The notes under the pieces were generated by a model. It was not told the DNA's origin. It ran no database searches and saw only the letters and a program-made list of their open reading frames with translations. A stretch of DNA of 64,000 nucleotides, taken from the NCBI GenBank assembly GCA_045123995.1, contig JBGVKY010000007.1, positions 109 through 64,108 of the forward strand, read 5' to 3'. Of the stretch, positions 26,784 through 47,467 are shown piece by piece. This DNA comes from Clostridia bacterium (lineage in GTDB: Bacteria > Bacillota > Clostridia > CAKSNL01 > HGM11501). Position 1 is the first letter of the stretch. Every line of letters starts with the position of its first letter. The translations under genes were made by a program, and so were the position numbers.

Positions 26784-26815
26784 AAAGAAGGTGCATACCA
26801 TGCACCTTCTTTTTA
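26782..26815. terminator. bidirectional terminator between tspO and the prophage-like cassette
   Basis: agaaggtgca-tacca-tgcaccttct with flanking A and T runs. Confidence 0.6.
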
Positions 26816-26817
26816 AT

Positions 26818-27792
26818 TCATACCTCACGCCAGTCAGGTCCGTACAAAATTCCGTCTCTTATCTTATATCCTGCATTTTCAAGATAATCCACATCAGCTG
26901 CGCTCAAAGCTTTTATTCCGTTTGTTTTATATATAGCTACAGCATTTTCAACCGGGTCATAGTTTGAAAGATAACTGTTTCCCGCAGCATCATATAAAAT
27001 CCCTGTGGAGGGATCGTACCAACACCCCTCTTCTATGGCTAAAAGCTTCTGGTCCCTGGATAAAGCCTCCCAGCCCATTGACTGAAAGTCCTGCATCATT
27101 AAAATATAATCTGACTTCTTAGCCTTATTTTCTGTTTCCTCTTCCTCCAAGGCCTCTTTTTCCTTTTCCCAAATTTCCTCTTCTTTTCTGATTTTTTCTT
27201 CGGCAAGAGCTATTTCCTTTAAGTTTTTGTCCTGCTCGTATAAAAATTCATCATATGCCATTTTATAAAAATCTGTCATTTTATCCGCCGCTTCCTCCAT
27301 GTAATCATTGTACTCTCCGCTTGCGGCCGATACTGCGTAGCTTCCTGCCACGCCTCCTGTCATGGAAGAAAGCTTACCAAGGGTATCTTCCATGGCCTTT
27401 TTTCCCTCTCTCTCCATCTTATTCACATAATTTTTATATTTTTTATCACTTTCAGGGTCATAGGTAAATTCGGCATCTTCATACTTTTTTAATGCCTTTT
27501 CTAAATCTACGTAGCCTTCTGCCTCTTCATAGTTGAAGGCGGGACTCATAGTACTGTTTCCCTTAAGACCCATGCCTATTTCATCGCTTCGTCTTCCGTC
27601 AGAAAGCTCCCATATACCTGTAGCTTCATCATAATAACTATCCTTACCGGTTTTTGCATCCCATCTTTTTACAAGCTGCACCTGTCTCTCATGGGCTCCT
27701 TCAGGGTCCAATGCCCAATCTTCTCTGTTTTTTTGAAATTCCCGATCAAATTCTTCTTTTGTAATATCTTCATACATAAACTCATCTTTCAT
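26818..27792 (-). CDS. phage protein of unknown function (acidic, coiled-coil; positionally like the SPP1 gp7-type minor head protein)
   Basis: 324 aa. Overlaps the portal stop by 11 nt. GGAGAAGG RBS. No diagnostic motif. Confidence 0.3.
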   Translation of the reverse strand: MKDEFMYEDITKEEFDREFQKNREDWALDPEGAHERQVQLVKRWDAKTGKDSYYDEATGIWELSDGRRSDEIGMGLKGNSTMSPAFNYEEAEGYVDLEKALKKYEDAEFTYDPESDKKYKNYVNKMEREGKKAMEDTLGKLSSMTGGVAGSYAVSAASGEYNDYMEEAADKMTDFYKMAYDEFLYEQDKNLKEIALAEEKIRKEEEIWEKEKEALEEEETENKAKKSDYILMMQDFQSMGWEALSRDQKLLAIEEGCWYDPSTGILYDAAGNSYLSNYDPVENAVAIYKTNGIKALSAADVDYLENAGYKIRDGILYGPDWREV

Positions 27793-29443
27793 AAGCCTTC
27801 TCCTCTCTCAATTTTTCCTGCCTTTCAAAATTGGTTATTTTTGAAACAATCTCATCCTTTCCGTCAAAATCCATCATGGATAACATGAGCAGAGCCTGAT
27901 GAGAATTTTTCGGATTGAAAATCCCCATTCTGTAAAGATTACTTGCCGTTTCATTCTGGGAAAGCTTTGAATAAGGATTGGTTTTCTGCGCCTTCACACT
28001 TATATCAAATATGGGTTTCCTTTTCAGAGAATTTCCTTCGTGGTCCGTAAGCTTCACCCCACCGGGACCTACAGTATCCTTAATCACCAGGTTTTTGTTG
28101 GAATAAGACACAAATTTTTCGCCCTCATTTGGTTTTACAATTCTGAAGGTTCTCTCGTTTGTATAAAACTGTCTTATAAGCTCGATAACAAGATTTATTA
28201 TCTTGACGTAGGCACGGTAACTGGTTTTTATCATATCACGGCTGGTTTTGTTCCCTGCCTCCTGAAGTGTTGCTATTGCCGCACCGCTGGTTACGCCGCC
28301 CTGGGTTCCTCCGGAATTTACATCTCTGTTTCCTATATTTTCTTTAAGCTCGTAAATCTTTCTTTCCAGAAGCTTATAATAAATTCCGCTTAAGGGATTT
28401 AATGAAATCTGATGGAAACGTTCATCAGATATATCTCCCGCCACGGAAACAAAGGGCTTTGACCAGTCGGAAAATTCCTTTTCGTTTATGCCAACGTCTT
28501 TTTTCTTGAACCATCTGGGAGTTGTGGCTTTCTTGGTATAATCCATTATAAGGGCGTCCAGACAGTCGATATATTCCTGGGCATCTTTGGTTACACTTAT
28601 AATTCCGTAGCCTGTAACCTTATCAGCTTCAGGATAAAGTGTATCTATAACCACAGGATATAAACCGTGGTCATAAAATCCCTTTTCTTTATAGTCCGGG
28701 TCATCTTCAGATGCGTAAAGCACGGTATCACCTGTATATTTACAGTAGTGAAGCACTGTTTTTCCATTGACCCTTTTCTTATAGTACCAGTCCACAACCA
28801 ATGTCTGATTGCTTCTATCCACCTCGTCATCCTTTTCATATTCCGATAGGGTAACAGCTTCCTTTGATATTTCCTTATCGGGATAGCGTTCCTTAAGAAC
28901 ATCTGCGTCCATAGCGGCACAGATAAAAAGATTTGGACTTTTCTGTATATCCGAAACCGCAGGGTCCCAGAAAAGATTTAAAAGGTCAATATTTTTAACC
29001 GTTATATCTCCTATTCCAAAGTCTTTGTCCACATCCCAGAAAACTCCGTAGCAGGCACTTCCATGTTTAAGCTTGTACCAGGTGCCTTCAGAGTAGGTTT
29101 CTTCAAATTCATTTCTGTCCAAAATAACCGGAATTATATCCGTGAGCATGGCCGCTTCATTCATATCTGACTCTTCCCTTGGAAGCATATAGGGTATGGG
29201 GTAGCTATCCATCATGTCGGCATGCTTATTCACAACTGCATTCCACATATACGCCGAGCTCGAGGGGGTAACTCCATTGTTTTCTCCGGATTTTTTCCAC
29301 ATCTGAAGACGCCATGCTTTTTCTTCCTCCACTATTCTGGATTCCAGGTTGACTTTCCCGTTCTTATATCTTTCCAATATAGCGGAAGCTTCCATGATTC
29401 TTTCATCCGAAGCTTTTTTATTTACACTTTTAATCTTTTTCAT
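27782..29443 (-). CDS. phage portal protein (putative)
   Basis: ~550 aa, immediately 3-prime of the terminase large subunit, as is usual for portals. Start chosen at ATG 29443 (RBS GAAAGGAGAATT); the ORF-track start is a TTG at 29509. Confidence 0.5.
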   Translation of the reverse strand: MKKIKSVNKKASDERIMEASAILERYKNGKVNLESRIVEEEKAWRLQMWKKSGENNGVTPSSSAYMWNAVVNKHADMMDSYPIPYMLPREESDMNEAAMLTDIIPVILDRNEFEETYSEGTWYKLKHGSACYGVFWDVDKDFGIGDITVKNIDLLNLFWDPAVSDIQKSPNLFICAAMDADVLKERYPDKEISKEAVTLSEYEKDDEVDRSNQTLVVDWYYKKRVNGKTVLHYCKYTGDTVLYASEDDPDYKEKGFYDHGLYPVVIDTLYPEADKVTGYGIISVTKDAQEYIDCLDALIMDYTKKATTPRWFKKKDVGINEKEFSDWSKPFVSVAGDISDERFHQISLNPLSGIYYKLLERKIYELKENIGNRDVNSGGTQGGVTSGAAIATLQEAGNKTSRDMIKTSYRAYVKIINLVIELIRQFYTNERTFRIVKPNEGEKFVSYSNKNLVIKDTVGPGGVKLTDHEGNSLKRKPIFDISVKAQKTNPYSKLSQNETASNLYRMGIFNPKNSHQALLMLSMMDFDGKDEIVSKITNFERQEKLREEKAYER

Positions 29444-29453
29444 AATTCTCCTT

Positions 29454-30860
29454 TCAGTACAGCAAATAGTCATATTTCCCCACTTTAACATCCTTTGAAA
29501 GAGGGTCAAATGCCTTTATTTCATAAGGAATGCTAAGCGAAGGAGCAATGGGCTTTGCCATACACATATACCTTACCTCATCGGCAATGTGATCCTCTCC
29601 CTCAGTGTCCAGATCCTCAGGATGAGTTTTCGAAAAAACCAAGGAGGGAAAGGTTTTTATAAATCCCTCGCAGTTGGAAAACACATACATCATCGGAATT
29701 TTATTTTCATCAAAATTCAGTCTGTAATGTACCTGCATCCAACCGGGGATTCTGTTATTGTCTCCCTTGTCAAAGTATATACCGAAGCTTTCTGCTGTTT
29801 CGTAAACCGAAGTCCCACGGGACTTGTCCCAGATAGAGGGGTCTGCAACACCTGAAATTTCTTTGCCTTTCAGCCAGGCGTGGCTTTTTTCCAATTCGGA
29901 AACTTTCGAAAATATCTTTTCAGGTGTCCATTTAACCCCTCTGTTGGGTATATAAAATCCGCCCTCATCCCTTGCACAGCCATAAAGCTCTAAAATTCTG
30001 TAGAGTCTGCCGTCAAAGTCAATCGCCCACCAGGCAACTGAAAAGGGCCTTGCGTATCCGAAGTCGAAGCTTCGCATAATTGTCCATTCCGGTGGCGGAG
30101 TAAAGGGTGCAATAACATGTGTATCAATTCTGTCTTCGTAATGCTCAATATTATTTTTAAATTCCGAAAAAAACTGTCCCTCGAAAATATCCCAGTCTCC
30201 GTATAATAAGGCCTTCTTCTCCGATAGGGGTAGAGATTCCAGTCTCTTTATATATGACGGGTCGTTTTCCATTAAAAACTTATTTTCCTCCACTCTTGCT
30301 GGAATGAACAAAAAAGTTGTATCTCCTTTTCTAAAGGGTTTTCCGGGGATTCCTGGGTTTATGAACATGGTCTTCACCCAGGAATGCCCCTTGCTTCCGG
30401 GGTTGGTGGAGGACTTTATCTGCTTAGGAAATTTATTGACGCCTCGAAGACGGCTCCTCATATACTTATACTGATATTCCGTAAAATGAGTAAGCTCATC
30501 AAAGCGGATTATATCATATTCTGCCGACTGGTAATTGGTAACATCAGAATCATTTGCTATATACCCAAACTCAATGAATGAACCGTTTACAAAAGTCATC
30601 TTATGATTTACGGAAGAATATGTATAAATTTCTTTCGGAAAAAGGGAAAGTGCCGTAAGTATAATTGAACGGTTAAGCTCAGGAAATGAATTTCTTAAAA
30701 TTATCTGCTTTATTCCGGGATATGCCATAGCCTTTATAAAAGCATCTATAAGCTGTCCGTAGCTTTTTCCGCCCCCGGCGGCTCCTCCGTATAAAACTTC
30801 ATCCTCTTTGGCATCAATAAACATTTTCTGTTTTTTTGTTACATTTAAGTCTATCTCCAT
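29454..30860 (-). CDS. terL: phage terminase large subunit
   Basis: Walker A YGGAAGGGKSY near the N-terminus, Walker B-like IIRFDELTHF, C-terminal nuclease region with acidic residues. 468 aa. Confidence 0.75.
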   Translation of the reverse strand: MEIDLNVTKKQKMFIDAKEDEVLYGGAAGGGKSYGQLIDAFIKAMAYPGIKQIILRNSFPELNRSIILTALSLFPKEIYTYSSVNHKMTFVNGSFIEFGYIANDSDVTNYQSAEYDIIRFDELTHFTEYQYKYMRSRLRGVNKFPKQIKSSTNPGSKGHSWVKTMFINPGIPGKPFRKGDTTFLFIPARVEENKFLMENDPSYIKRLESLPLSEKKALLYGDWDIFEGQFFSEFKNNIEHYEDRIDTHVIAPFTPPPEWTIMRSFDFGYARPFSVAWWAIDFDGRLYRILELYGCARDEGGFYIPNRGVKWTPEKIFSKVSELEKSHAWLKGKEISGVADPSIWDKSRGTSVYETAESFGIYFDKGDNNRIPGWMQVHYRLNFDENKIPMMYVFSNCEGFIKTFPSLVFSKTHPEDLDTEGEDHIADEVRYMCMAKPIAPSLSIPYEIKAFDPLSKDVKVGKYDYLLY

Positions 30861-30879
30861 TTTTCCTCCCCGGTCCTTT

Positions 30880-31128
30880 TTAGCCTTCAGACAATTCGCT
30901 TATGCGCTCCTGGGCCTTGCCCTTCTGTCCCAATGCCTGCTCTATTACTAGGGCATATTTTCTCTTGATTTTTACTTTCTTTCCTCTGGGAACTATGAGC
31001 GCTGTTCCGTTTAAGATTACAACAACGTCATCTTTATATCTGCCGTCATCCTTGTGAAGTGTTATTTCAACTTCCTCATTTAAGTAATCCTTGTTTTCGT
31101 AAATGTTTTCTTTAACCTTTGTAGCCAT
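30880..31128 (-). CDS. small phage protein of unknown function (82 aa, basic)
   Basis: ATG 31128 preceded by GAAAGGAA; the ORF-track TTG start at 31146 abuts the capsid stop. No motif. Confidence 0.3.
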   Translation of the reverse strand: MATKVKENIYENKDYLNEEVEITLHKDDGRYKDDVVVILNGTALIVPRGKKVKIKRKYALVIEQALGQKGKAQERISELSEG

Positions 31129-31146
31129 AGTATCAATTCCTTTCAA

Positions 31147-32148
31147 TTAGTTTTCTTCGTCTTCAAAGCTTGATGTGGTTTCTACTCTTACCATGTAAGG
31201 TTCAACCAGAATTTCTGCAGTATGGTATGCTTTCCAGCCCACTGTAGAACGCTGATTTAAGGGGTCTCCCGTACCTGCGGAACCCAACGCCTTAACGATG
31301 GTTGTAAGACCTCCGCCTTCAATATCTGTTATACCGTAAGCATCCTTACCGAAAATAAGAGTTGCATAAACGCTTCTTCCGTCGGCACCTTCCTTCCAGA
31401 TTTTAGCCTCTGTTGATTCGATTACCTTTACTCCTGCAATTTCTCCGATTTCACCGTTATAGATTTTTTCGACGTTATTTGAAGTGTACTTCTGGGCTTC
31501 AATCCAGTCGGGATCACTCATCAAATCGTAAGCTACTGAAGGATGCATGATTGCAATATAGTAACCGTCAATTTTGGGTGTGTTGTTCATTTTAAGAGTG
31601 CGGACTGCTCTCTTTAATACGTCAACGGACATATAGTGATTTCCTGTTTCAGCTCCGCCCTTTAATGCCCCTCTTGCTTCAACGCTGCCGTCAAAGTACT
31701 GAACGTTTGTACCGCAAACCAAAATATCTCTTTCCACGTTGTCGATGGTTCTTGCCGCCTGGTCTGAAATAAGCTCCAGGGTTTCGGTTACCACGGGGTC
31801 TATTGACATAACGTTAAGATTATCGGAAATTGTGACATATCCGCCGTACTGGTGAATTGTACCCGTCACAGTGGATACGTCAAGATTCTGTCCGTCGGGA
31901 GTTACGCCCTCTGTGAGAGGTGTTGTAGCCTTACCGAGAGGTGTAAACTTACGGAACTCGATCTGATTACCGCCGTTTACAGGGATGTTTCTCTTCTGAC
32001 CGAACTGACCGTGTATAAGATTGGGCTTTGCCAGATGAATTAAGGTTTTGTCATAGAAAACCTTGTTCTGTGATACTAAATTGTTGCCTTCCTTGTTAGA
32101 TGTCATTGTGTTGGTGTTAAGACCAAATAAGTTTAAGTTGATATTCAT
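31147..32148 (-). CDS. phage major capsid protein (putative)
   Basis: 333 aa, directly downstream of the scaffold-like and Prp-like genes. Strong GGAGGA RBS. Assignment by position and size only. Confidence 0.45.
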   Translation of the reverse strand: MNINLNLFGLNTNTMTSNKEGNNLVSQNKVFYDKTLIHLAKPNLIHGQFGQKRNIPVNGGNQIEFRKFTPLGKATTPLTEGVTPDGQNLDVSTVTGTIHQYGGYVTISDNLNVMSIDPVVTETLELISDQAARTIDNVERDILVCGTNVQYFDGSVEARGALKGGAETGNHYMSVDVLKRAVRTLKMNNTPKIDGYYIAIMHPSVAYDLMSDPDWIEAQKYTSNNVEKIYNGEIGEIAGVKVIESTEAKIWKEGADGRSVYATLIFGKDAYGITDIEGGGLTTIVKALGSAGTGDPLNQRSTVGWKAYHTAEILVEPYMVRVETTSSFEDEEN

Positions 32149-32166
32149 TATAATTCCTCCATTTAA

Positions 32167-32844
32167 TTATTCTGCGAAAGTTATTTTTTCGCCGTTTTTT
32201 ACTTTTTTGAGAATTTCATCAATTTCCTTATCTGTCAGTGCTCCTGCACTTTTCTTAGCACGGACAGAGGGTGAATTTTCAATTCCCGCTTCATTGATAC
32301 GGCCTTTTCCTGCACGGATATTTTCCAGGGCCGCTTTAGATGCATGTTCGCTTATGCCTTTTGATATTTCGTCGAAATTTAAAGCCCTGTATAAAGAAGT
32401 CATGGGAATTCCTGCATTAAGTCCTTTTACAAAATCAGGTTTTTCAAATTCCTTTGAAAACTTGAATTCAGGATATATTTCCGAGGTTTTCTTCGCCTCG
32501 TCCATCCACTTTTCATACATTTTTTCAAACGTTTCTCCTTCGTAGTTATTTTTAGAAGGAGCAAGCACCTCCTTCTTTAAATCCTTTAATATAAGAGTTA
32601 CAAGGCTTTCTATGTCGCTTATGCCGTAATACTCTATTAAAGGTGCAAGGCTTTTTCTAATTGATACCAGTGCTTCTTCGGTTTCTCTCATTTTTTTGAA
32701 GCGCTTGGCAAATTCTCTGTCGAATTTCTTCTGAAACTCGTCTTTATATTCATTTTGCATGAGGTCTGAAAATTTCTTTCCTTTTTCTTCTCCCACGCCC
32801 GGGCTTTTTACTTCCCTCTCATTTTTTTCTTTCTTATTTTCCAT
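32167..32844 (-). CDS. phage scaffolding protein (putative)
   Basis: 225 aa, very charged and predicted helical (KE-rich), located between the Prp-like protease and the capsid gene. Confidence 0.4.
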   Translation of the reverse strand: MENKKEKNEREVKSPGVGEEKGKKFSDLMQNEYKDEFQKKFDREFAKRFKKMRETEEALVSIRKSLAPLIEYYGISDIESLVTLILKDLKKEVLAPSKNNYEGETFEKMYEKWMDEAKKTSEIYPEFKFSKEFEKPDFVKGLNAGIPMTSLYRALNFDEISKGISEHASKAALENIRAGKGRINEAGIENSPSVRAKKSAGALTDKEIDEILKKVKNGEKITFAE

Positions 32845-32864
32845 GAAAAATCCCTCCTAAAAGT

Positions 32865-33158
32865 TTACTCCGCAAATTCTTTTGCTAAAATCAAATCTTC
32901 CCTGTATTTTTCCCCTATTATTTCTATACCGCATCTGAACATTTTCAGTGCTTCTTTCGCCTTTCCATTAAAGATAATTTCTGAATTACCCTCAAGGACC
33001 CGGCACTTTTTGAAAATACAGCCCGACTCTTTTAAGTACCCTAAAAGAGCGTAAAACAATCCGGATACCGCATGGCATACCTCACTTTTTTCGGCATGTC
33101 CCAAAATTTTTATTCGGGTATCCTCATTTTCTTCTACCGAAACCGAAATCATACGCAT
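32865..33158 (-). CDS. Prp-like cysteine protease (ribosomal-processing protease homologue used by phages for capsid/scaffold N-terminal cleavage)
   Basis: ILGHAEKSEVCHAVSGLFYAL fits the Prp GHA...VCAAVS catalytic His/Cys dyad pattern. ~100 aa. Confidence 0.5.
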   Translation of the reverse strand: MRMISVSVEENEDTRIKILGHAEKSEVCHAVSGLFYALLGYLKESGCIFKKCRVLEGNSEIIFNGKAKEALKMFRCGIEIIGEKYREDLILAKEFAE

Positions 33159-33179
33159 CCCCCCTTTCAATAATTTTTC

Positions 33180-33770
33180 CTATTTTTCGATTAACTTTTT
33201 CTGATATCTTCTTATTATTGCCCTTAAGTAATCTGCCTTGACCTTTGCTTTTCCCGATAAGAAAAGCTCCCAGTTTATCACATTCTTAAAGGTTATAATG
33301 CCATCTTTATACATGGTGTTCACAAGTTCATCTTCCGATACCTTAAGGATTTCATCAAAGGGGAATTTATCTCCGGGACACTCTGTTACCGAAAAGTCCG
33401 AATGTTTATAAATTCTAAAATCCTTGCCGTAGATTTCTTCTAAGTAAGCTAAAAGCTTTCTTCCTGCTTCCAGCTGTTCCTTCCCCATGGACTCTTTTGT
33501 AAAGTCTCCCTCAAAGCAAATTCCTATACTTTCCGTGTTCTTTCCCTGGCAGTGGGCACCCATGGTTTCTATGGGCCTTCCACGATATATGGAGCCGTCG
33601 CACCTCACATAGAAGTGATAGCCAATTCCTGCCCAGCCTTTTTTTATGTGGTCTTTATGTATGCTTAAAATATCACCGAAGCCTGCCCTGTGGTGCAAAA
33701 TTATTTTTTCAGTCTTGCTTCTTGCCTGAAGTCCGCCTTCAAATACAAGCTCTGTTTCAATTATGTTCAT
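33180..33770 (-). CDS. N-acetylmuramoyl-L-alanine amidase (Amidase_2/PGRP-type endolysin)
   Basis: Zn-binding His/Cys pattern of T7-lysozyme-type amidases (ILHHRAG, GYHFYV, HSDFSVTECPG). Confidence 0.8.
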   Translation of the reverse strand: MNIIETELVFEGGLQARSKTEKIILHHRAGFGDILSIHKDHIKKGWAGIGYHFYVRCDGSIYRGRPIETMGAHCQGKNTESIGICFEGDFTKESMGKEQLEAGRKLLAYLEEIYGKDFRIYKHSDFSVTECPGDKFPFDEILKVSEDELVNTMYKDGIITFKNVINWELFLSGKAKVKADYLRAIIRRYQKKLIEK

Positions 33771-34212
33771 TTAATACCCCCTCTACTTTACTTTTGCTTA
33801 CTTCAAGTCCTTTAATTAAAAATGAGGGAACTTCAACCTCCATCAATATAAGATTTTCCAGAATCGAGCGTATTTCATTTATAATAAATGTTGCCAGGGT
33901 AAACCAGCCGAAAAGAGCAGTAAAGCTTAAATCGGCTCCTATGTGATGCCCCATTTCCTTTAAGGAAACAGCTATGAAAAACGCCACGGCTATGCAAATC
34001 CAGTAACCTAATTTTTTAACTATTCCCCTGGCTCCTTTTAAGGAATTTTCAGCTCCGAAATACTTGGCTTTTAATATTCCCGTTATGTAATCCAAGATAT
34101 TCAATATCAAAAAGCATAAAAATAGGTACCAGTATTCTCCCAATATTCCCGAAAGCAAGGTGACTAAACTTCCCCACAAAAAGTTCATTTTGTTAAATAA
34201 TTTCTCCATCAT
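33757..34212 (-). CDS. phage holin (holin_4_1/TcdE-like family)
   Basis: 151 aa with three hydrophobic TM helices and a charged C-terminus. Overlaps the amidase start. Confidence 0.6.
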   Translation of the reverse strand: MMEKLFNKMNFLWGSLVTLLSGILGEYWYLFLCFLILNILDYITGILKAKYFGAENSLKGARGIVKKLGYWICIAVAFFIAVSLKEMGHHIGADLSFTALFGWFTLATFIINEIRSILENLILMEVEVPSFLIKGLEVSKSKVEGVLNEHN

Positions 34213-35090
34213 TTCTTCCTTATTTCCTCCTCTAATTCAAATATTTTTTCGTCGTATTTCTTAACCAGTGTGTCTACAATTTTTGCCATTTCACCACGTT
34301 TTAATGCTCCCTCGGGCTCAAAGGAGTTTTCGCTTCTTCCGTCGAAAATTCCCGAAAAATATCCATTTCTTATGTATTTTTCTGCCCAGTGGCCTGAAAC
34401 GTCATTAAAGGGCAGGTCGAACTTGTCCATAAATATCAGATACACCTCAGAAAGGTATTTAAAGTCCACCTCATGAAGACCATTATCTCCGAATTCTTCG
34501 CCCCAGGAATTCTGGCAAAGGGCTAAATTGTCCTTTGTCCAGCCTATAATGATTTCTGCATGACGGCCTAAACTTCCGTAGTCCCATATCATCATAAGGG
34601 GCAGATTAAATTCATAAAGAGTTCTTTTTATGTTGGTAGCAAAATCCTCATTCTTTTTGACCTTAAAATAATTACCCACCTTAAAGCCCATGGATTTAGG
34701 ATATTTTTCCTTATATTCCTTTGCCTTTTCGATTGCTTCGGGCACCTCAAAATTTCCCGGTGCAATCCTTCTTGTGGTTGTTCCTTCCTCTCTTCCCAGT
34801 TTTATTGTGGTTTCAGGGAACATTCCCTCTCCCGTGTGCTTTCTCCAGAGTCCGTAAACCATCAGCACCGAAAGGTCTGTATCATCCTTTTTATTTTTAA
34901 TTAAGTTTGCCTGCATACATTCGCAGATGGCATGAGCCACGCATGAGCTCACTGTTTTCTGGTCAAGTACCTTTGGCCTGTTTTTTATTATATATTCTTC
35001 GGGGAGCTCCTCCTTTTTTACCGTGATAATTTTTTCAATATCGTAAACTCCCGTACTTCCTACACTTTTCAATACTCCTGTTTTATGCAT
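34209..35090 (-). CDS. papain-like cysteine peptidase with C-terminal SLH (S-layer homology) domain; probable cell-wall-targeted lysin
   Basis: Cys in QKTVSSCVAHAICE and His in LGRHAEIIIGW (peptidase dyad). C-terminal FNDVSGHWAEKYIRNGYFSGIFDGRSENSFEPEGALKRGEMAKIV matches the SLH consensus. Confidence 0.5.
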   Translation of the reverse strand: MHKTGVLKSVGSTGVYDIEKIITVKKEELPEEYIIKNRPKVLDQKTVSSCVAHAICECMQANLIKNKKDDTDLSVLMVYGLWRKHTGEGMFPETTIKLGREEGTTTRRIAPGNFEVPEAIEKAKEYKEKYPKSMGFKVGNYFKVKKNEDFATNIKRTLYEFNLPLMMIWDYGSLGRHAEIIIGWTKDNLALCQNSWGEEFGDNGLHEVDFKYLSEVYLIFMDKFDLPFNDVSGHWAEKYIRNGYFSGIFDGRSENSFEPEGALKRGEMAKIVDTLVKKYDEKIFELEEEIRKK

Positions 35091-36915
35091 AATATCTCTC
35101 CCTTCCTATTCCGTAAATAGTATATTTTCCTGTTCCTTCAAATCTTAATCTGTATGTACTGCACCGTCTTATAACTACAGGGATTTTAAATACGTTCCTC
35201 TTTTCTTTTCCTTCTTTTTCCCAGAGAGGAATAAAATCTTCCCCGTCATAGCTTATAAGAAGTTTAAGACGTGCCCCTTCTTCTATTTTGCAGCTTACAG
35301 AAATTCCCGAAACTCCCTTTTCCTCTAAAGATGCATCGTAAATGGGGGCATATTCAACAAAGCTTTCTATCTCTTCGTCATCAATTTCCCCGTTTACAAG
35401 ATAAATGCCTTTTTCGTCCATGAAATAAAAGTTCTTACCTAGTCTTGCAAAATCAATTATTTCACCTGACGATTCTTTTACCCATGCCCTGATTTTTGTG
35501 TCATATTTATAAATAACATTTTCACCCGAGGAAAGCTTTGTGGCCAAATAGTACTTATCTTCAACTGTTCCTCCAACTCCACTTCTGAGCTTTTCCCCAA
35601 GGGCTGCCCCCACTAAGTAAGGGTAAGAGCCGGAATATCCCATAACTCCCTGAGAAGAAAGATAATATAAAACTCCGTTTACTATAGCTAGACTCTTTTC
35701 AGCCCCTTTCATAACTCCTGCTATATCCTTTGTTTCATAAGTAGAGTACTGTGATGTATAGTTTCCTCCAATCCTTATAAGCGAATCCTCCTTGAAAAAT
35801 GTCGGATATCCGTTGTACTCTATGCCTCCGGTAAATTTTCCGTTTGAAAGTACCGATACCGCCCAGGCACTTCCCGAAAGAGTGCTGTAATTATTGTAGT
35901 TAAAGGGGTCTCCCAGAGCCGATGCATGAATTTCGTCTCCGTCAATTCCCCAGAGTCGGTTGTTGGAACAAAAGGCAAATTCAAAATTCGGTACTACTCT
36001 TTCAATGGTTATCGATAGCACTTTTGATATTTTAAATTTCGTATCAAATGTCAAAGTTGCATATTCTTTCGAGTCGCTTGTAGTTGTTCCTTTTTTTACA
36101 AGTTCTGTATAATATATTTTATTTTTCCCCCCCTCCACGGTTGCGCCCACTAAAAGTGTAACTTTGAAATAGTCCCCTATTCTCATCCAGTTTATATCTC
36201 TGGCTTTCGATTCTCTTATCTGTACCAACTGATGAAGTTCATTATCCAGACTCTCATAGAACTTTATGTAATTTAATTCTTCTTTATCTTCAACGTAAAG
36301 CTTACCTCCCATTTCCCCGAAAGTATCCAAAAGATATATCCATCTGTCTTGCTCCGCATAATCTTCAACATCACTTTTACTTCTTTTTACCGCTTTCCAT
36401 GTTCCCTGAGAATTAAATTGTACTACCGCATAGGGAGCCTTTGTCCCCACAGTATATATATCACCATCCTTCAAGGTTGGGTCGTTTAATGTCGCCTCCT
36501 GGAGCGCGGTTAAGGTTTCATAGGTCCCCAGGCTTTCCCTTTCCCACAAGGAAAAATATTTTCTGTCCGGGAAAACGCATATATATTTATTTACAACAGC
36601 AAAGGTCTTTTCTGACTTTTCAACTTCAAAGAATTTTTCATCGTCATAGTAAAAATATGCCCTCCCGTCTTCCTCATCCACCGCACAATAATATAACTTA
36701 TCGTCTCTTCCCATACCGTAAGGTTTTTCCCTAAAAGATTTTATCAAGTCCCTTTTGTTTCTTACGGATAACGAAGGATAGTCGTCGGTTGTAATATTCA
36801 TGCAATCGTAAATTTCACCGTCTTTTGCTCCTTCGGTGTGGTTTATTCCGGCAAAAAGAAATTTATTTGCCGTTTTTTTTGATTTAGTGTATTTTGCCTT
36901 TGGCAGTTTTAACAT
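35083..36915 (-). CDS. large phage protein of unknown function (610 aa; possibly tail-fibre/receptor-binding or other structural protein)
   Basis: First gene of the leftward operon with a strong AAGGAGAAAAAAT RBS. Gly/Tyr-rich C-terminal half. No catalytic motif. Confidence 0.3.
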   Translation of the reverse strand: MLKLPKAKYTKSKKTANKFLFAGINHTEGAKDGEIYDCMNITTDDYPSLSVRNKRDLIKSFREKPYGMGRDDKLYYCAVDEEDGRAYFYYDDEKFFEVEKSEKTFAVVNKYICVFPDRKYFSLWERESLGTYETLTALQEATLNDPTLKDGDIYTVGTKAPYAVVQFNSQGTWKAVKRSKSDVEDYAEQDRWIYLLDTFGEMGGKLYVEDKEELNYIKFYESLDNELHQLVQIRESKARDINWMRIGDYFKVTLLVGATVEGGKNKIYYTELVKKGTTTSDSKEYATLTFDTKFKISKVLSITIERVVPNFEFAFCSNNRLWGIDGDEIHASALGDPFNYNNYSTLSGSAWAVSVLSNGKFTGGIEYNGYPTFFKEDSLIRIGGNYTSQYSTYETKDIAGVMKGAEKSLAIVNGVLYYLSSQGVMGYSGSYPYLVGAALGEKLRSGVGGTVEDKYYLATKLSSGENVIYKYDTKIRAWVKESSGEIIDFARLGKNFYFMDEKGIYLVNGEIDDEEIESFVEYAPIYDASLEEKGVSGISVSCKIEEGARLKLLISYDGEDFIPLWEKEGKEKRNVFKIPVVIRRCSTYRLRFEGTGKYTIYGIGRERYYA

Positions 36916-36941
36916 ATTTTTTCTCCTTCCTCAATTTAATT

Positions 36942-37091
36942 TTATCCTGCCGGATTTTCGATTTTTCTTTCGTAAAGACTTTCTTCTTCATCTTTCGTAA
37001 GCTCCTGACTTAAAACAAAGCACCAGTTATATAAAATTTTTAATTTTTCATCCGGGCTCATGTTCTCTTCTACTCTGGGAAGCTTTTGCAT
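36942..37091 (-). CDS. small acidic hypothetical protein (49 aa) heading the leftward operon
   Basis: GGAGGAATTTGT-ATG. MQKLPRVEENMSPDEKLKILYNWCFVLSQELTKDEEESLYERKIENPAG. Not in the ORF track (under 60 aa). Confidence 0.3.
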   Translation of the reverse strand: MQKLPRVEENMSPDEKLKILYNWCFVLSQELTKDEEESLYERKIENPAG

Positions 37092-37244
37092 ACAAATTCC
37101 TCCTTTAACTCATTAGGTTACAAACGGGCGAAAAAAATTACCCCACCGCCCAATACAGGCTGCAGGAACCTATATTGGCAGAGAGAACTCAATTCTTACG
37201 CTGTATAATAAGTATACCACACTTTTTTACACCTGTCAAGTCAT

Positions 37245-37320
37245 TTTTTAAAAAAATTTCTTTTTAGGTCATTTTGTACAAAAAACTCTTGACTTTATTG
37301 ACTCATTATGTTAATATATA
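37245..37320. promoter_or_regulatory. divergent repressor/lytic promoter-operator region with repeated TTGACT/AGTCAA half-sites
   Basis: TTGACT-17-TAATAT promoter for the repressor (about 37290-37318). TTGACT/AGTCAA motifs recur three times (tgtcaagtca; cttgactttattgactc). Confidence 0.4.
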
Positions 37321-37335
37321 TACGAGGTGATACTT

Positions 37336-37971
37336 ATGACTATGGGTCAGAGAATTTATTCTTTACGTAAACAAAGAAAAATGACACAGGAAGATGTAGC
37401 AAAAAGATTGGGCGTTGCAGTTCAGACAGTTTTTAAATATGAAAAAGGAATTGTAACCAATATCCCCTTGGACAAGCTTGAGGTTTTGGCAAGGATTCTT
37501 GACACCACCACTACCTACCTTACCGGCTGGGGCGGTGAAGATGAGGACTCAGGCAGAGAAACAATAAAAAATCTCATCACGGCAGACCTTGTGAAAATCC
37601 CCCTGCTTGGAGAGATTGCCGCTGGCGAGCCCATTTTAGCTCAGGAAGAGCATGAATCATTTGTAGAAGCAGGAAGCGACCTTCATGCCGACTTCTGTCT
37701 TAAGGTTCACGGTGACTCAATGATAAATGCCCGTATCTACGACGGTGATGTGGTTTTCATTCACAAACAGCCTATGGTTGAAAACGGTGAAATTGCCGCT
37801 GTTATCATAGATAACGAAGCCACATTAAAGAGAGTTTATTACTATCCCGAGAAAAATAAGCTTATGCTGACTCCCGAAAACCCTGCTTATGAGCCCTTTG
37901 TTTTCATGAATGAGGAGCTTTCTAACGTAAGAATTTTAGGAAAGGCAATCGCATTCCAGAGTAAGTTATAA
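37336..37971 (+). CDS. CI/LexA-like phage repressor (XRE HTH + S24 peptidase domain)
   Basis: HTH QEDVAKRLGVAVQTVFKYEKG. Autocleavage-type Ala-Gly (EIAAGEP), S24 catalytic Ser in GDSM and Lys in ATLKRV. GAGGTGA RBS. Confidence 0.8.
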   Translation: MTMGQRIYSLRKQRKMTQEDVAKRLGVAVQTVFKYEKGIVTNIPLDKLEVLARILDTTTTYLTGWGGEDEDSGRETIKNLITADLVKIPLLGEIAAGEPILAQEEHESFVEAGSDLHADFCLKVHGDSMINARIYDGDVVFIHKQPMVENGEIAAVIIDNEATLKRVYYYPEKNKLMLTPENPAYEPFVFMNEELSNVRILGKAIAFQSKL

Positions 37972-38016
37972 AAAAATAAGGTTGAAAACGAAAGTTTTCA
38001 ACCTTATTTTTTTATT
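37972..38016. terminator. bidirectional terminator between the repressor and mrp
   Basis: aaggttgaaaac-gaaa-gttttcaacctt (12-bp perfect stem) flanked by A7 and T9. Confidence 0.65.
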
Positions 38017-40180: not shown

Positions 40181-40606
40181 TTACCCTAAAGCTACCATGC
40201 TGAAAACCAGTGCGAACAATGCAACAGTTTCGCAAAGACCTACAACAGTTATATATTGAGAAAAGCCTTTTCCTGTTTCAGCCAAAGCATCCGCACCCGC
40301 AGCACCAGCTTTTCCCTGATAAACTGCGGAAAAGGCCATAGCAACACCGGATGCAATACCAAGGCCAAACAAGAAGGCAGGATCTGCATCAGATGCTTTC
40401 ATCTGCTGCATTAAAAGAAATCCATAAATAGTCTGTGTAAGAGGAGCTCCGGCAAAAACAGTAAGAATAAACGGTGCCGCCTTATTGCTCATATAGCATT
40501 TTTTCCACGCCCCGATAGATGCCTGGCCTGCCAGACCAATACCGATAGCCGATCCGATAGCAGCAATACCCATTGCCAGCGCTGTTCCAAGAATTCCTAA
40601 ATTCAT
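40181..40606 (-). CDS. atpK: V-type ATPase proteolipid subunit K (c-ring)
   Basis: Two hairpin TM pairs, Gly-rich (AIGSAIGIGLAG, GLGIASGVAMAFSAV), conserved Glu. Start ATG 40606 after AAGGAGA. Confidence 0.8.
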   Translation of the reverse strand: MNLGILGTALAMGIAAIGSAIGIGLAGQASIGAWKKCYMSNKAAPFILTVFAGAPLTQTIYGFLLMQQMKASDADPAFLFGLGIASGVAMAFSAVYQGKAGAAGADALAETGKGFSQYITVVGLCETVALFALVFSMVALG

Positions 40607-40619
40607 AACGATTCTCCTT

Positions 40620-42542
40620 TTAATCAATTTGTTCTTTAAATGGTTGAAATTTATGTCCACTCCACGACATATCTAAGTGTGAAGAAAACTCCAGTGTATT
40701 AAGTCTGATTCCATGAACTATAACAGACAGAATATTTAATATCATATTAAGTCCGTGACCAAATACCAGAAGAACAATAGCAAGTATCATAAACATAAAT
40801 TTACCGAGCAGAGGTCCTGCCAACTCATTTACAGTAGCAGAGATTGCCGCTCCTGCAAGACCGACAGCCCAGAGTCTGATATACGAAACGATATCAGAAA
40901 ATACATTCACTACTCCAAGCAAAACCGACACAATATTGGTAAGGCTTGAAAGAATGGATTTTACTACGCTTCCTTCATAATTTGAAAATACAAAACTTGT
41001 GATAAACCCTATGCCTATAAGTATAACGGCAACAGTTCCTATGGGGATGCCACTTATCACAAGACCAAAACTGAACACCTCGGCATTTACAACAAGGCTA
41101 AGCACCAGGTAATAGATTCCTAAAAGTTGCAGTATCGAACCTATATCACCGAGCATTTTAAGTGAGCTTCTGTTTCTTACAACACCTTTTATATGTGCCA
41201 CAGAAAGCTGTATCAAAGCTAGAGAAAAGCAGAATATCTGCAAGTTTTGAGCCGTTGTCAACCCAGCTTTTCCGTTTGTCCAGAAAGGATACCATATCTT
41301 ATCGGAATACACATTTGAAATTACCGGTACGGATAAACTCTTCAGCCAAGCAGGTAACTGCTCGGGGCTCAGCCCAAACCAGGTACAAGTCAGCGTTCCC
41401 CATAAAACCGTAGAAAGCCCAAAAAGTCCTATCAGTAAAAACATAGGGGAAACTTTCTTTTTTGAAACTATGGCTTTTATGACAGGAATCGCAGCAACAG
41501 CTGAAATTAACAGTCCGTATCCTCCGTCACCGAAAATTATCCCGAAAAATATGAGTATAAATGCAAGGAACCAACCGGAAATATCATATTCAAAATATCC
41601 CGGAACAGTCCCCAGAAAGTCAGTCAGAGGATAAATAAGACTTACAAATTTATTGTTTCGGAGTTTGGTAGGAACATTATCCTCTTCTCCTGGCTCTTCT
41701 ACTAAAAGCCCCCAGGAATTTTTTGTTGCTGTTTGTTTTAGCCTGTCTATGTTCTCTGCCTCAATATAACCTTTGAAATATGCTACAGAAACCACTTGTT
41801 TGCCATATGAAGCTATGTTTTCATCAGTCATACCGGTATGATAAGTTTCAAATTCAATTTCCTTTTCAATACTTTTGATTGCTCGCTTTATACTTTCAGT
41901 ATAACAAGCTTTTTCTTCAATCAATCGGTCTATTTCGTCAATGCGGCTTTCACTTTCAGAAATTCTTTTTTTCATATTTGCAGAGGAAATCTGTGGGAGC
42001 TCCAAGCGATAAGCAGCAATAGAAGAAATAAATTCTTCTTCGTCCTCAGAATCAGATTTTACCAAAAGAAATCTGACTGTCGATTTTGTTGTGTCTAGCC
42101 TGAGTGTTTTAACGTTATCAACAATCTCTTCATATTCATTCTTCGGCATCTCATAAAATAATAACTCTATACCTTTTTTCTCTAAATGGCTTATATCTTC
42201 CGGTGAAATATCTCCCCAGTTTTTAAGACGTTCAAGCTCTGAAATAAGTGCAACCCTTTCTGCCTGGCATTGTTTCTTTTCTTCATCAAGAGAAGAAACT
42301 TCTCCGGCAATGGCTAACACCTCTTCAGTATTTACACTTTTCTGTTCTATCTTATCCCCTTTTCCTATAGAAAATGCCGTGCTTTCAAGTAAAGCGAGCT
42401 GTTCGCTTAACCTCTCAAGCTTTTCTCCCGAGCCCTCGGTTATCTCCATATGGAGCATTCCTAAGCTACGTAATATTTTCAAGGCATTTTCTTTTTCATT
42501 CCCTCTTATAATGAGAACCACTTTTTTCATAGGCACTATCAT
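40620..42542 (-). CDS. atpI: V-type ATPase subunit I (a-subunit, stator/proton channel)
   Basis: 640 aa with a soluble coiled-coil N-terminal half and a C-terminal multi-TM half carrying a conserved Arg (RLWAVGLAGAA). Confidence 0.8.
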   Translation of the reverse strand: MIVPMKKVVLIIRGNEKENALKILRSLGMLHMEITEGSGEKLERLSEQLALLESTAFSIGKGDKIEQKSVNTEEVLAIAGEVSSLDEEKKQCQAERVALISELERLKNWGDISPEDISHLEKKGIELLFYEMPKNEYEEIVDNVKTLRLDTTKSTVRFLLVKSDSEDEEEFISSIAAYRLELPQISSANMKKRISESESRIDEIDRLIEEKACYTESIKRAIKSIEKEIEFETYHTGMTDENIASYGKQVVSVAYFKGYIEAENIDRLKQTATKNSWGLLVEEPGEEDNVPTKLRNNKFVSLIYPLTDFLGTVPGYFEYDISGWFLAFILIFFGIIFGDGGYGLLISAVAAIPVIKAIVSKKKVSPMFLLIGLFGLSTVLWGTLTCTWFGLSPEQLPAWLKSLSVPVISNVYSDKIWYPFWTNGKAGLTTAQNLQIFCFSLALIQLSVAHIKGVVRNRSSLKMLGDIGSILQLLGIYYLVLSLVVNAEVFSFGLVISGIPIGTVAVILIGIGFITSFVFSNYEGSVVKSILSSLTNIVSVLLGVVNVFSDIVSYIRLWAVGLAGAAISATVNELAGPLLGKFMFMILAIVLLVFGHGLNMILNILSVIVHGIRLNTLEFSSHLDMSWSGHKFQPFKEQID

Positions 42543-43171
42543 AATGAATACACCTCCTTTTCGGGAGAAGCAACATTGCGAAGTGCTATTTTACGTTTTG
42601 ATATTTTCGAACGCACCACAGCACTGACCTGCTGGTCTGCCATATAAATAGATATTTTTTTTATATTCTCTTTTGTTTCGGGGATTTTAACCTTTTCAAA
42701 AAGATTCACTCTTTGAGAGGTAGAAAGAAGCTCTTTTTCCAAAAGTCTGACCTGCTCATCCAACACTTCTGCCTCCAGTTCCATGGCTATTGCTTTTTCC
42801 ATGTGGTTTGCAGCTATATCCACCCAAAGCGGAGTTTCATAAAGATCATATTCTCCCCTCTGAAAATCCGCCCCTTCAAATACAGGAATATCTACTCCGG
42901 CAATGTTTCCGGTTCCCTTTCTTATATTGCTGACAACTATGATTCCACGTGGGAAAGCATCCTCTTCGCTGAAAACAGCTATCCATTCACTGAAACCAAG
43001 TTCAAGAATTTCTCTTTCTTTTCTTACCGCTTCAGCTTTTGCTTCAATGGAGCGTATTTCTGCTTGGAGCTGTTGTTTTTTCAGTGTCAGAGTAGGCAAA
43101 TATCTGCGGTACATTTTTAAAGCATCTTTTTGTACCTTTAACTCATTTTTAGTCAGTTTGATTTTTGCCAA
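42539..43171 (-). CDS. atpD: V-type ATPase subunit D (central stalk)
   Basis: MAKIKLTKNELKVQKDALKMYRRYLPTLTLKKQQLQ is the canonical subunit D N-terminus. ATGA coupling. Confidence 0.8.
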   Translation of the reverse strand: MAKIKLTKNELKVQKDALKMYRRYLPTLTLKKQQLQAEIRSIEAKAEAVRKEREILELGFSEWIAVFSEEDAFPRGIIVVSNIRKGTGNIAGVDIPVFEGADFQRGEYDLYETPLWVDIAANHMEKAIAMELEAEVLDEQVRLLEKELLSTSQRVNLFEKVKIPETKENIKKISIYMADQQVSAVVRSKISKRKIALRNVASPEKEVYSL

Positions 43172-43185
43172 AACTACACCCCTCC

Positions 43186-44487
43186 TTACTTCTTAGGCCA
43201 AAACTCATCAGTAAGGTCTGATTTTATTCCGGTTTCATCTTTATCAAAGCAATCAGCTAAAATTTCCCATCCTAAATCAAGGGCTCCTTCCAGTGAAAGA
43301 TTTACTGACAGAGACATCATCTTGCTTTCAAAAAGTTCGCCGTATTTAAGCAATTTTTCATCCCAGCGGCTCATAGCAAACCCCATATTCTTCTTTTCCA
43401 GGGTTTCTTTATAGGAAGAATACATTCGTATCATTGCATCCATAAGAGCACGATGATCTTTTCGTGTTTTTCCGTTTACATTTTGCTTGAGTCTGGAAAG
43501 AGATCCAAAAGGCTCTATTCGGCCTCCTTTAAGGTAATACTGACCCTCGGTAATATATCCTGTATTATCGGGAACAGGATGAGTTACATCATCTCCGGGC
43601 ATTGTAGTAACTGCCAAAACAGTGACAGAACCTGAATCTGCAAAATCAACTGCCTTTTCGTAACGGGCAGCAAGCTGCGAATATAGATCTCCGGGATATC
43701 CACGGTTGGATGGCACCTGTTCCTGAGTAATAGCAATTTCTTTCATGGCATCGGCAAAGTTTGTCATATCCGTGAGAAGCACCAATACATCCTTGTTTTG
43801 TAGTGCAAACTGCTCTGCCACCGCCAACGCCATGTCAGGAATCATCATGCATTCTACTGTAGGATCTGAAGCTGTATGGATGAACATAACCGTTTTACTC
43901 AAAGCTCCTCCTTTGGAAAGTGCATCCTTAAAATACAAAAAATCGTCATATTTAAGTCCCATTCCACCCAGCACAATTACATCTGCTTCTGCCTGCATGG
44001 CAATACGGGCCAGAAGCTGATTATAGGGCTCTCCGGAAATAGAGAAAATGGGTAACTTCTGAGAAACAACCAGAGTATTAAACATGTCAATCATCGGAAT
44101 ATTGGTTCTCATCATACGATTTGCAAGAATACGTTTGGTAGGATTAACCGAAGGGCCACCGATACTCTTCATGTTTTCCGTAAGAGCCGGTCCTTTATCT
44201 CTCGGTTCTCCTGATCCGTTGAATATACGTCCCAACAGATCATCGCTGAATGACACTCTCATTTCGTGTCCAAGGAATCTCACTTCATCTCCTGTAGAAA
44301 CACCCTGTCCTCCGGCAAATACCTGTAAAGACACTATATCTCCTTCAATCTTATTAACCTGAGCCAAAGACTTTCCAAAGCGGGTATTTATTTGTGCTAA
44401 TTCCTTATATTGAACATCGTTTGCCCGGACGGTAATGACGTTGCCTGTAATTGACTCTATTTTGCTATATACTTTATTCATTATCAT
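43186..44487 (-). CDS. atpB: V-type ATPase subunit B (regulatory)
   Basis: Alpha/beta fold with a degenerate P-loop region. 433 aa. Operon position between A and D. Confidence 0.85.
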
Positions 44488-46807: not shown

Positions 46808-46808
46808 A

Positions 46809-47417: not shown

Positions 47418-47467
47418 AATCTTATCTCCTTTATATTTAGTCACAATTTTTAGTTAAAGAGCAAAAA

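Follow-up and report, generated by a model that had tools for sequence, protein, structure and literature searches.

An 11-kb cassette of phage-derived genes lies among housekeeping genes in a 64-kb stretch of an uncultured gut Clostridia genome (64,000 nucleotides of contig JBGVKY010000007.1, assembly GCA_045123995.1; referred to below as the window). The conserved position of this cassette and the substitution patterns of its genes strongly support the view that it has been domesticated by its host, that is, that it is vertically inherited under purifying selection and is not a decaying prophage. On balance, we favour the reading that it descends from a temperate podophage of ~40 kb that infected gut Clostridia, has come to resemble a gene transfer agent (GTA), of the FpGTA or PBSX kind, and is contained in one 11.2-kb operon. 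All of the sequences compared are metagenome-assembled genomes (MAGs) or metagenomes.

Locus layout and conservation of the cassette

Twelve minus-strand open reading frames (ORFs; 26818-37091), overlapping or tightly packed and each provided with an ATG start and a GGAGG-type ribosome-binding site (RBS), form the operon, and a repressor gene with HTH_3 and Peptidase_S24 domains is read divergently from it. The order of transcription is s49 (49 aa), nozzle (610 aa), papain-SLH peptidase, holin, amidase, Prp-like protease, scaffold, capsid, s88, large terminase (TerL), portal and g324. A dense minus-strand operon with strong RBSs, divergent from an S24 repressor, had been proposed in an earlier, sequence-only reading of the window, and the ORFs, the RBSs and a promoter were all found in place, with a count of 12 genes. 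The clean terminators next to housekeeping genes, which the same reading had placed at both borders, were recovered as hairpins at 26784-26817 and 37970-38013, and the cassette measures 11,230 bp between them. An Rfam scan of the whole cassette and its leader returned sub-threshold chance matches at the terminator only.

The flank on one side carries genes for hydrogenases, peroxiredoxin, citrate synthase, RadA, BipA, CtsR-McsAB-ClpC, FBA and TspO; the other carries an Mrp/NUBPL-type ParA gene, AI-2E, a V-ATPase operon and the rpoA/ribosomal-protein/SecY operon. GC content is 39.6 % in the cassette and 40.3 % in the remainder of the window, and att-like direct repeats, looked for at the cassette borders, were not found there. 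Scans with Pfam, PHROG and NCBIfam profiles detected no gene for an integrase, excisionase, replication protein, small terminase (TerS) or fibre, either in the cassette or in the whole window, and a tblastn search of the window with TerS, fibre and other genes of a canonical relative (L078) returned noise only (E >= ~0.1). The sequence-only reading had likewise listed integrase, excisionase, replication and small-terminase genes as missing. By these scans, structural and packaging genes reside in the chromosome with no replication or integration functions, a feature by which GTAs are recognised.

The genes and borders of the cassette are listed below. Percentages are identities to the corresponding products of loci L007, L008 and L009, in this order; dN/dS, the ratio of nonsynonymous (dN) to synonymous (dS) divergence, was calculated with our own Nei-Gojobori (NG86) implementation for the stretch against L007, unless stated otherwise.

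26784..26817 (unstranded): bidirectional hairpin terminator AAAAAGAAGGTGCAT-ACC-ATGCACCTTCTTTTT, a perfect hairpin read in the sequence, at the operon's distal end and common to the convergent TspO gene
26818..27792 (-): g324, helical fast-evolving protein of 324 aa, no family match; 77 % and 56 % (L007, L008)
27782..29509 (-): portal, P22 type (PF16510 4e-33; phrog_156 3e-72); 92 %, 84 %, 74 %; dN/dS 0.05
29454..30860 (-): TerL (PF04466 and PF03237; phrog_979 3e-48); 94 %, 86 %, 76 %; dN/dS 0.05
30880..31146 (-): s88, conserved small protein of 82-88 aa, head completion or adaptor candidate (phrog_15239 5e-14); dN/dS 0.03-0.04
31147..32148 (-): major capsid protein, N4-gp56 family (TIGR04387 281 bits; phrog_1357 6e-80); 96 %, 93 %, 82 %; dN/dS 0.04
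32167..32844 (-): putative scaffold, 225 aa, charged and helical (phrog_13908 1e-34, C-terminal half of the profile only)
32865..33170 (-): cysteine protease resembling Prp, probably acting in capsid maturation (PF04327 1.4e-4; phrog_4478 4e-7)
33180..33770 (-): N-acetylmuramoyl-L-alanine amidase, an Amidase_2 endolysin (PF01510 1.5e-17; phrog_35436 4e-34); dN/dS 0.05
33757..34212 (-): holin, holin_4_1 family (PF05105 2.6e-29); dN/dS 0.08
34209..35090 (-): cysteine peptidase of papain-like (C1) type, one SLH repeat at its C-terminus (SLH PF00395 2e-9; faint Peptidase_C1; phrog_16701); dN/dS 0.03-0.08
35083..36915 (-): predicted podovirus tail nozzle, 610 aa, tail tubular protein B class (beta-propeller and tip domains), fast-evolving (structure model); 86 %, 56 %, 39 %; dN/dS 0.06
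36942..37091 (-): s49, the operon's first ORF, 49 aa, kept in L006-L008, L015 and L022 and adjoining the nozzle gene in three cassette lineages; dN/dS 0.27, the cassette maximum
37970..38013 (unstranded): bidirectional terminator with a 20-bp stem, separating the repressor gene from the host's Mrp

The sequence-only reading had proposed comparative genomics as a check, asking if the cassette is conserved and syntenic. The 12-gene layout with its repressor adjoins Mrp/ParA and lies downstream of the ribosomal/rpoA operon in L006 (GCA_045595485), L007 (GCA_045588365) and L008 (GCA_965319795), so that the same Mrp junction is present in four genomes, counting the stretch itself. In GCA_017411325 and other GTDB-representative MAGs the same gene order and repressor occupy a different site. 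The neighbourhood beyond the Mrp junction varies, with the V-ATPase operon present or absent and a different downstream gene; the V-type ATPase operon (40181-47444), which in the stretch and in L006 separates the rpoA-rplQ operon from AI-2E/Mrp, is not found at that position in L007 and L008, a rearrangement of the host.

Divergence of the cassette follows that of the host. The capsid is 96 and 93 % identical to its counterparts in L007 and L008, respectively, as compared to 94 and 94 % for Mrp, and AI-2E is 75 % identical in L008. Against L007, dS of the cassette genes is 0.43-1.42, with flanking values of 0.73 (Mrp) and 1.07 (TspO); dN/dS is 0.03-0.27 for every cassette gene and 0.05-0.06 for the flanking Mrp and TspO. 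Taken together, host-like dS, a fixed junction and housekeeping-like constraint argue for co-divergence with the host under selection, and they are not what one would predict for a recent deletion derivative or a neutral remnant. The sequence-only view of a domesticated rather than decaying element is thus borne out by the same junction in diverged genomes, by dN/dS of 0.03-0.27 at dS of 0.4-1.4, by the host-like GC content and by the lack of att repeats, and vertical inheritance under purifying selection, a second mark of GTAs, is what the Mrp junction and dN/dS indicate.

An inert prophage remnant that has not yet decayed is a very improbable explanation of the locus. Its phage ancestry is obvious, and related copies that have apparently decayed do exist: in L021 and L025, both on the 207-kb contig CAYXRC010000002.1 of one Ruminococcus sp. 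MAG, TerL, the amidase and the SLH protein survive in fragments only, and the two copies form a natural contrast to the intact cassette. The 12 ORFs and the repressor, however, are intact in at least four genomes at the dS and dN/dS values given above; neutral decay over such distances would have destroyed the reading frames, and we consider this explanation effectively refuted.

Comparison of the stretch with the near-identical L006 yielded a patchy pattern. Higher dS was observed in the capsid (0.16), nozzle (0.14), SLH-peptidase (0.12) and holin (0.10) genes, and lower dS in those of TerL (0.014), scaffold (0.015), Mrp (0.011) and AI-2E (0.016), which suggests recombinational replacement of segments inside the cassette.

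Nozzle, head genes and phage relatives

The product of the second gene, a 610-aa protein, had no family match in the Pfam, PHROG and NCBIfam scans, and the sequence-only reading had described the cassette as tail-less. An AlphaFold2 model of this protein, built from 56 homologues, reached a predicted local distance difference test (pLDDT) score of 86.8 and a predicted template modelling (pTM) score of 0.84. In a Foldseek search with the model, the top 21 matches were all nozzle chains (E 3.6e-14 to 1e-6), including P22 gp10 (8eap_D). On the strength of the model, the protein is confidently predicted to be a podovirus tail nozzle with the P22 gp10 / T7 gp12 fold, and the central piece of a short phage tail would therefore be encoded in the cassette; the description as tail-less no longer holds.

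The family labels that the sequence-only reading had given to the portal, TerL, capsid, scaffold, amidase, holin, SLH peptidase and S24 repressor are upheld by the profile matches; that of the Prp protease is weak. The portal may start at an ATG at 29473 (563 aa) or at a TTG at 29509 (575 aa). The scaffold gene is always located between the portal and capsid genes in relatives, and its product is 215-228 aa long in most of the compact clade (319 aa in L020) as compared to mostly ~270-377 aa in the ~40-kb phage relatives; one may speculate that a short scaffold hints at a smaller head. The Prp-like ORF matches Prp with 22.5 bits, below the gathering score, and contains the His-Cys dyad (GHA...VCHAVS). 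The capsid N-terminus, MNINLNLFG/LNTN (the slash marks the presumed cleavage point), resembles the Prp cleavage motif of ribosomal L27 and of phage 80alpha. The Prp gene is missing from the sister cassettes L016-L018, which implies that the host Prp can substitute for it.

Three small or divergent products complete the set. The s88 gene lies directly 3' of the capsid gene in about 50 related loci, among them phages in which a phrog_309 TerS is encoded separately, upstream of TerL. As an ORF upstream of TerL, s88 was considered as a small terminase and ruled out, since it is linked to the capsid in relatives which have that separate phrog_309 TerS; its family profile gave nothing meaningful against the sequences of the PDB. 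The g324 protein, which is likely a virion-associated or ejection-type protein, had been called gp7-like in the sequence-only reading; this label could not be maintained, as no Pfam, PHROG, NCBIfam or PDB match was obtained, and its family profile also found nothing meaningful among PDB sequences. No family match was obtained for s49 either. The possibility that s49 is a truncated phrog_12105 adaptor or fibre anchor was examined by BLASTP and rejected, as no similarity was seen.

Homologues of the capsid number in the thousands; the identical protein is on record for two contigs only. Among cultured phages the Page-group podophages of Bacillus megaterium come nearest, with a capsid identity of 39 %, and in human-faecal virome scaffolds homologues of TerL, portal, scaffold, capsid, nozzle and g324 are found in canonical order. 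A capsid-profile scan of one genome per GTDB species yielded at least 574 relatives, of which the best 80 were sorted into three groups. The first (capsid identity >=71 %; L014-L020) consists of "Clostridia bacterium" MAGs from humans and goats, with the same rearranged order and the same divergent repressor where enough of the locus is present. The second (~61 %; L022, L023, L024 and L026, labelled Ruminococcus sp. or Clostridia) displays another compact permutation, portal-s49-nozzle-g324-TerL-scaffold-capsid-s88. In L022 (2418-11923) the host genes AraC, GH2 and ABC transporter follow at once and no lysis genes are found inside the cassette, and L023 (2892-11307) has a divergent S24 repressor. 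The third group, comprising the rest of the best 80 (<=56 %), consists of canonical podophage prophages with the order TerS(phrog_309)-TerL-portal-(Prp)-scaffold-capsid-s88-collagen-like fibres-...-phrog_12105-nozzle-g324. The gene order that the sequence-only reading had called scrambled does indeed differ from the canonical order of the cassette's own phage relatives. Within the MAG JAZSAR01 two different cassette fragments were observed, L019 and L020, with capsids 81 % and 71 % identical to that of the stretch; these are either paralogous cassettes in one genome or a mixture of strains in the bin.

In a sister subclade of the first group (capsid identity 82-84 %) the nozzle gene is followed by one for an extra protein of 430-676 aa with a phrog_12105-like N-terminus (L018, 4833-6863; L015, 4706-5998), which in L015 includes collagen-like fibre repeats. 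This protein is probably a tail fibre that was lost from the lineage of the stretch.

Comparison of the compact cassette with its canonical 40-kb kin indicates a reduced, multiply rearranged descendant of a ~40-kb podophage. Page-group phages and the uncultured ~40-45-kb gut podophages share with it homologous TerL, portal, scaffold, capsid, s88, nozzle and g324-like genes, and differ from it in their ~40-kb genomes, canonical order, TerS, collagen-like fibres, and replication and lysogeny modules. The cassette keeps about a quarter of such a genome, in a new order, and, judged by gene content against these kin, TerS, the fibres and the modules for lysogeny and replication have gone from its lineage.

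A scan of IMG/VR (2.9 million viral contigs) with the single capsid protein gave no loci. With the capsid alignment the best identity was 57 %, and many relatives were located on ~40-45-kb contigs; members of the compact clades were not seen among the viral contigs. This bears on another explanation, which we regard as improbable, namely that the cassette is a still-mobile minimal element, a mini temperate podophage or satellite which fills a small head with its own genome of ~11.2 kb and re-enters chromosomes by homologous recombination or by host or helper functions. For the T=3 head of a tailed phage a capacity of 11.8 kb has been predicted (PMC7762592), to which the 11,230 bp of the cassette come close; control is of the CI type, as in a temperate phage; two subclades occupy different chromosomal sites; and the patches of raised dS between near-identical strains suggest recombinational exchange. 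Such an element is nevertheless difficult to reconcile with a cassette that has no integrase, excisionase, replication, TerS or pac-recognition gene and no att repeats, with an Mrp junction kept across genomes whose flanking genes differ by a dS of ~0.7-1.0, and with a clade that is missing from a viral database in which its 40-kb phage relatives are abundant.

Regulation, lysis and proposed mechanism

The features upstream of the operon are as follows.

37110..37140 (-): 5'-leader box GGTAATTTTTTTCGCCC...(A)TAACC, invariant in six cassettes, even where nozzle identity is down to 39 %
37211..37239 (-): operon promoter TTGACA-17-TG-TATACT, near-consensus sigma-70, 11/12 matches, extended -10
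37240..37290 (unstranded): two operator-like boxes, GTCATTTTTTAAAAAA... and GTCATTTTGTACAAAA..., 28 bp apart, 19-23 nt, each with an AT palindrome
37327..37971 (+): CI/LexA-type repressor, Xre-type HTH and S24 domain (PF01381 and PF00717); likely ATG 37336, 211 aa; 97 %, 87 %, 74 %; dN/dS 0.03

In its 211-aa form the repressor has the features of LexA self-cleavage, LGEIAA/GEP (Ala96-Gly97, at the slash), GDS128M and LK165R. The LexA equivalog profile TIGR00498 matched its C-terminal domain only, with 103.9 bits (8e-30) against a cut-off of 110.95; together with the Xre-type HTH_3 N-terminus, this match below the cut-off points to a CI-like repressor and not to the host LexA. The operator-like boxes lie between the divergent promoters, one abutting the -35 hexamer of the operon and the other overlapping the promoter of the repressor, and the repressor would be expected to bind at both. 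The promoter hexamers are invariant in six loci, as is the AAAATGAC motif that abuts the operon -35. These self-cleavage features, together with the promoter and operator-like boxes, make SOS-type derepression a reasonable expectation. The leader box could be a protein-binding site or an attenuator; it had no Rfam match, and RNAalifold gave -5 kcal/mol with no convincing consensus fold.

Beside the holin and the amidase, the operon encodes the papain-SLH peptidase, which contains the full set of C1 motifs (SSCVAHA, GRHAEIIIGW and CQNSWGEEFGDNG) and has no signal peptide. It is unusual for a holin and an amidase to be accompanied by a papain-SLH fusion devoid of a signal peptide. More speculatively, the peptidase could be a lysis or entry accessory that targets S-layer or wall-anchored proteins at exit or entry.

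Domestication of the cassette is well supported; from the genes that it keeps we infer DNA packaging and transfer, along the following lines. In the resting state the CI/LexA-type repressor would occupy the two boxes overlapping the strong sigma-70 promoter. Upon DNA damage, activated RecA (RecA*) would prompt its self-cleavage at Ala-Gly and so derepress the operon, from which a single ~10.3-kb transcript would provide the nozzle, papain-SLH, lysis and head proteins, TerL, portal and g324. Scaffold and capsid would build procapsids on the portal, and a Prp-type protease, the element's own or that of the host, would trim the capsid N-terminus. TerL would then fill the procapsids by a headful mechanism, the substrate probably being whatever cellular DNA is available; since no TerS or pac-recognition subunit is encoded, packaging is probably non-specific. 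The nozzle would close the portal to give a stubby podovirus-like particle, the holin and amidase, possibly with the SLH-protease, would lyse the producer cell, and the released particles would act as a gene transfer agent, delivering DNA to recipients.

Several observations weigh against this reading. The uncultured organisms concerned are represented by MAG and metagenome sequences throughout. No portal-nozzle adaptor was identified and no fibre or receptor-binding protein was recognised in the lineage of the stretch, so that the particle may be unable to adsorb or to deliver DNA unless such parts are encoded elsewhere, as they are in operon II of FpGTA. The absence of TerS likewise means no detectable homology within 64 kb, and unlinked TerS, adaptor and fibre genes are possible. 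As the 11.2-kb cassette is about the size of the 11.8-kb T=3 capacity, it cannot be asserted that the locus is larger than the head can hold, as is classically required of a GTA. A linked SOS-type repressor is prophage-like, unlike the host-regulon control of alphaproteobacterial GTAs. Finally, since dS above ~1 is near saturation, the dN/dS values against L008, which are similar to those against L007, are approximate.

The main rival to a GTA-like function is that of a killer or altruistic-lysis particle similar to PBSX, in which SOS-triggered lysis or particles harm competitors or release public goods and DNA is packaged and not productively delivered; we consider it unlikely, though it deserves more weight than the other alternatives. 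In the logic of its architecture the cassette is like PBSX: a repressor and lysis genes of its own are gathered at one locus, together with a TerL of the headful type. The loss of the fibre and the lack of a recognisable adaptor in the lineage speak against efficient injection of DNA, and the nozzle and g324 evolve fast, as do proteins engaged in surface interactions or arms races. Conversely, the housekeeping-like dN/dS of TerL, portal and capsid (~0.04-0.05) is hard to explain if DNA packaging is irrelevant, no killing module such as a contractile sheath or a toxin is encoded, and DNA packaging is reported for FpGTA, the nearest relative that has been studied by experiment (PMC12946183).

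A bolder form of the GTA-like reading is possible and, in our judgement, doubtful. According to it, the cassette would be the most compact self-contained GTA yet seen, present in a family-wide clade of uncultured gut Clostridia, with an SOS-derepressed 11-kb operon, a podovirus-like particle of head, portal and nozzle that is devoid of fibres and TerS, non-specific packaging of host DNA by TerL only and a breach of the S-layer by the SLH-papain protein at exit or entry; its domestication would be independent of that of FpGTA and, together with the L022/L023 type, would speak for repeated conversion of N4-gp56 podophages across the Oscillospirales.

Relation to known systems and significance

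Of the systems described so far, FpGTA of Faecalibacterium prausnitzii comes closest. Its operon I (10.5 kb) encodes a TerS that has no DNA-binding domain, TerL, portal RCH50851, a scaffold, the major capsid protein (MCP) RCH50849, which belongs to the N4-gp56 family, a Sf6-gp7-like adaptor (RCH50847) and the nozzle RCH50846, which was matched to the P22 gp10 structure 8eap; operon II (5.5 kb), located 125 kb away, encodes a baseplate, a fibre, a receptor-binding protein, a holin and an endolysin (PMC12946183). The particles are ~40 nm in size and tail-less in appearance, and carry ~8.4-8.9 kb of random host DNA (PMC12946183). The same study reported GTA-like packaging also in Oscillospiraceae, Christensenellaceae and Ruminococcus callidus; of four MAGs searched there, only one, that of a Faecalibacterium, yielded a strong candidate for the locus (PMC12946183). 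The term GTA-like, already used in the sequence-only reading, remains the best description, with a published precedent in a neighbouring family (PMC12946183).

The cassette, known from its genes, and FpGTA are both chromosomal, about 10-11 kb, podovirus-derived and resident in gut Clostridia that are neighbours at the order level. They have in common an N4-gp56-family capsid (RCH50849 in FpGTA; the 281-bit TIGR04387 match in the cassette), a portal (PF16510 in the cassette), a scaffold, TerL and a nozzle with the P22 gp10 fold (8eap), and neither has replication or integration genes. FpGTA, in contrast, keeps the canonical order TerS-TerL-portal-scaffold-MCP-adaptor-nozzle and is divided between two operons, whereas the cassette is one rearranged operon that includes holin and amidase. 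TerS lies directly upstream of TerL in FpGTA; the cassette has the capsid-linked phrog_15239 protein at this place and no detectable TerS or adaptor. The papain-SLH and Prp-like proteases are further differences, as is the linked CI/LexA-type repressor, no regulator having been reported for FpGTA. No Faecalibacterium locus was present among the best 80 of the at least 574 capsid relatives (identity down to ~49 %). The FpGTA capsid is therefore probably less than ~50 % identical to that of the cassette, and a common and an independent domestication are both possible.

Capsid-forming phage-inducible chromosomal islands (cf-PICIs) carry an integrase, a replication module, TerS and head-tail connectors, have no tail genes, and depend on the tails of a helper. 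They are similar to the cassette in being small (~10-15 kb) chromosomal elements with their own capsid, portal and TerL under a repressor. The cassette differs in that it has no integrase, replication (pri-rep) module, att sites or TerS, has a nozzle, and is fixed and vertically inherited. The suggestion of the sequence-only reading that it might be PICI-like, or the capsid part of a satellite, is accordingly disfavoured by the missing integrase, replication module and TerS, by the fixed, vertically inherited locus and by its own nozzle.

PBSX of Bacillus subtilis is a single species-conserved locus which is induced by DNA damage, has its own repressor, holin and amidase, packages by headful without replication and is not mobile by an integrase. 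It is of ~28 kb and of myovirus type, with a contractile tail, both TerS and TerL, and an Xre repressor that has no S24 domain. PBSX is the closest analogue of the cassette in regulatory logic; the cassette, by comparison, is of 11 kb, of podovirus type and without TerS. PBSX was used as a GTA-like control in the FpGTA study (PMC12946183).

Alphaproteobacterial GTAs of the RcGTA type resemble the cassette in vertical inheritance, purifying selection on head and packaging genes, absence of replication and integration genes, and lysis of a producer subpopulation. They differ in being siphovirus-like, with an HK97-type T=3 head, in their ~15-kb cluster with dispersed loci and in a TerS that is retained and non-specific; they are regulated by the host through CtrA, GafA and quorum sensing, as opposed to the linked SOS-type repressor of the cassette (PMC9638019).

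The cassette is a variant of the recently described podovirus-type GTA-like elements of gut Clostridia. GTA-like packaging of host DNA has recently been reported to be common in gut Ruminococcaceae, Oscillospiraceae and Christensenellaceae, and the encoding loci are known only for Faecalibacterium, the authors of that study having found none for the others (PMC12946183). The cassette provides a compact genetic signature for such loci, namely a CI/S24 repressor, nozzle, lysis genes, N4-gp56 capsid, TerL and portal with no TerS or integrase, and this signature comes with evidence of long-term host selection. It is also a warning for annotators that cassettes of this kind are not "incomplete prophages". 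If functional, the cassette would be a one-operon, SOS-controlled system that might be transferred in one piece for mechanistic studies or as a chassis for DNA delivery, and it would allow one to test if a GTA can function without TerS and fibres.

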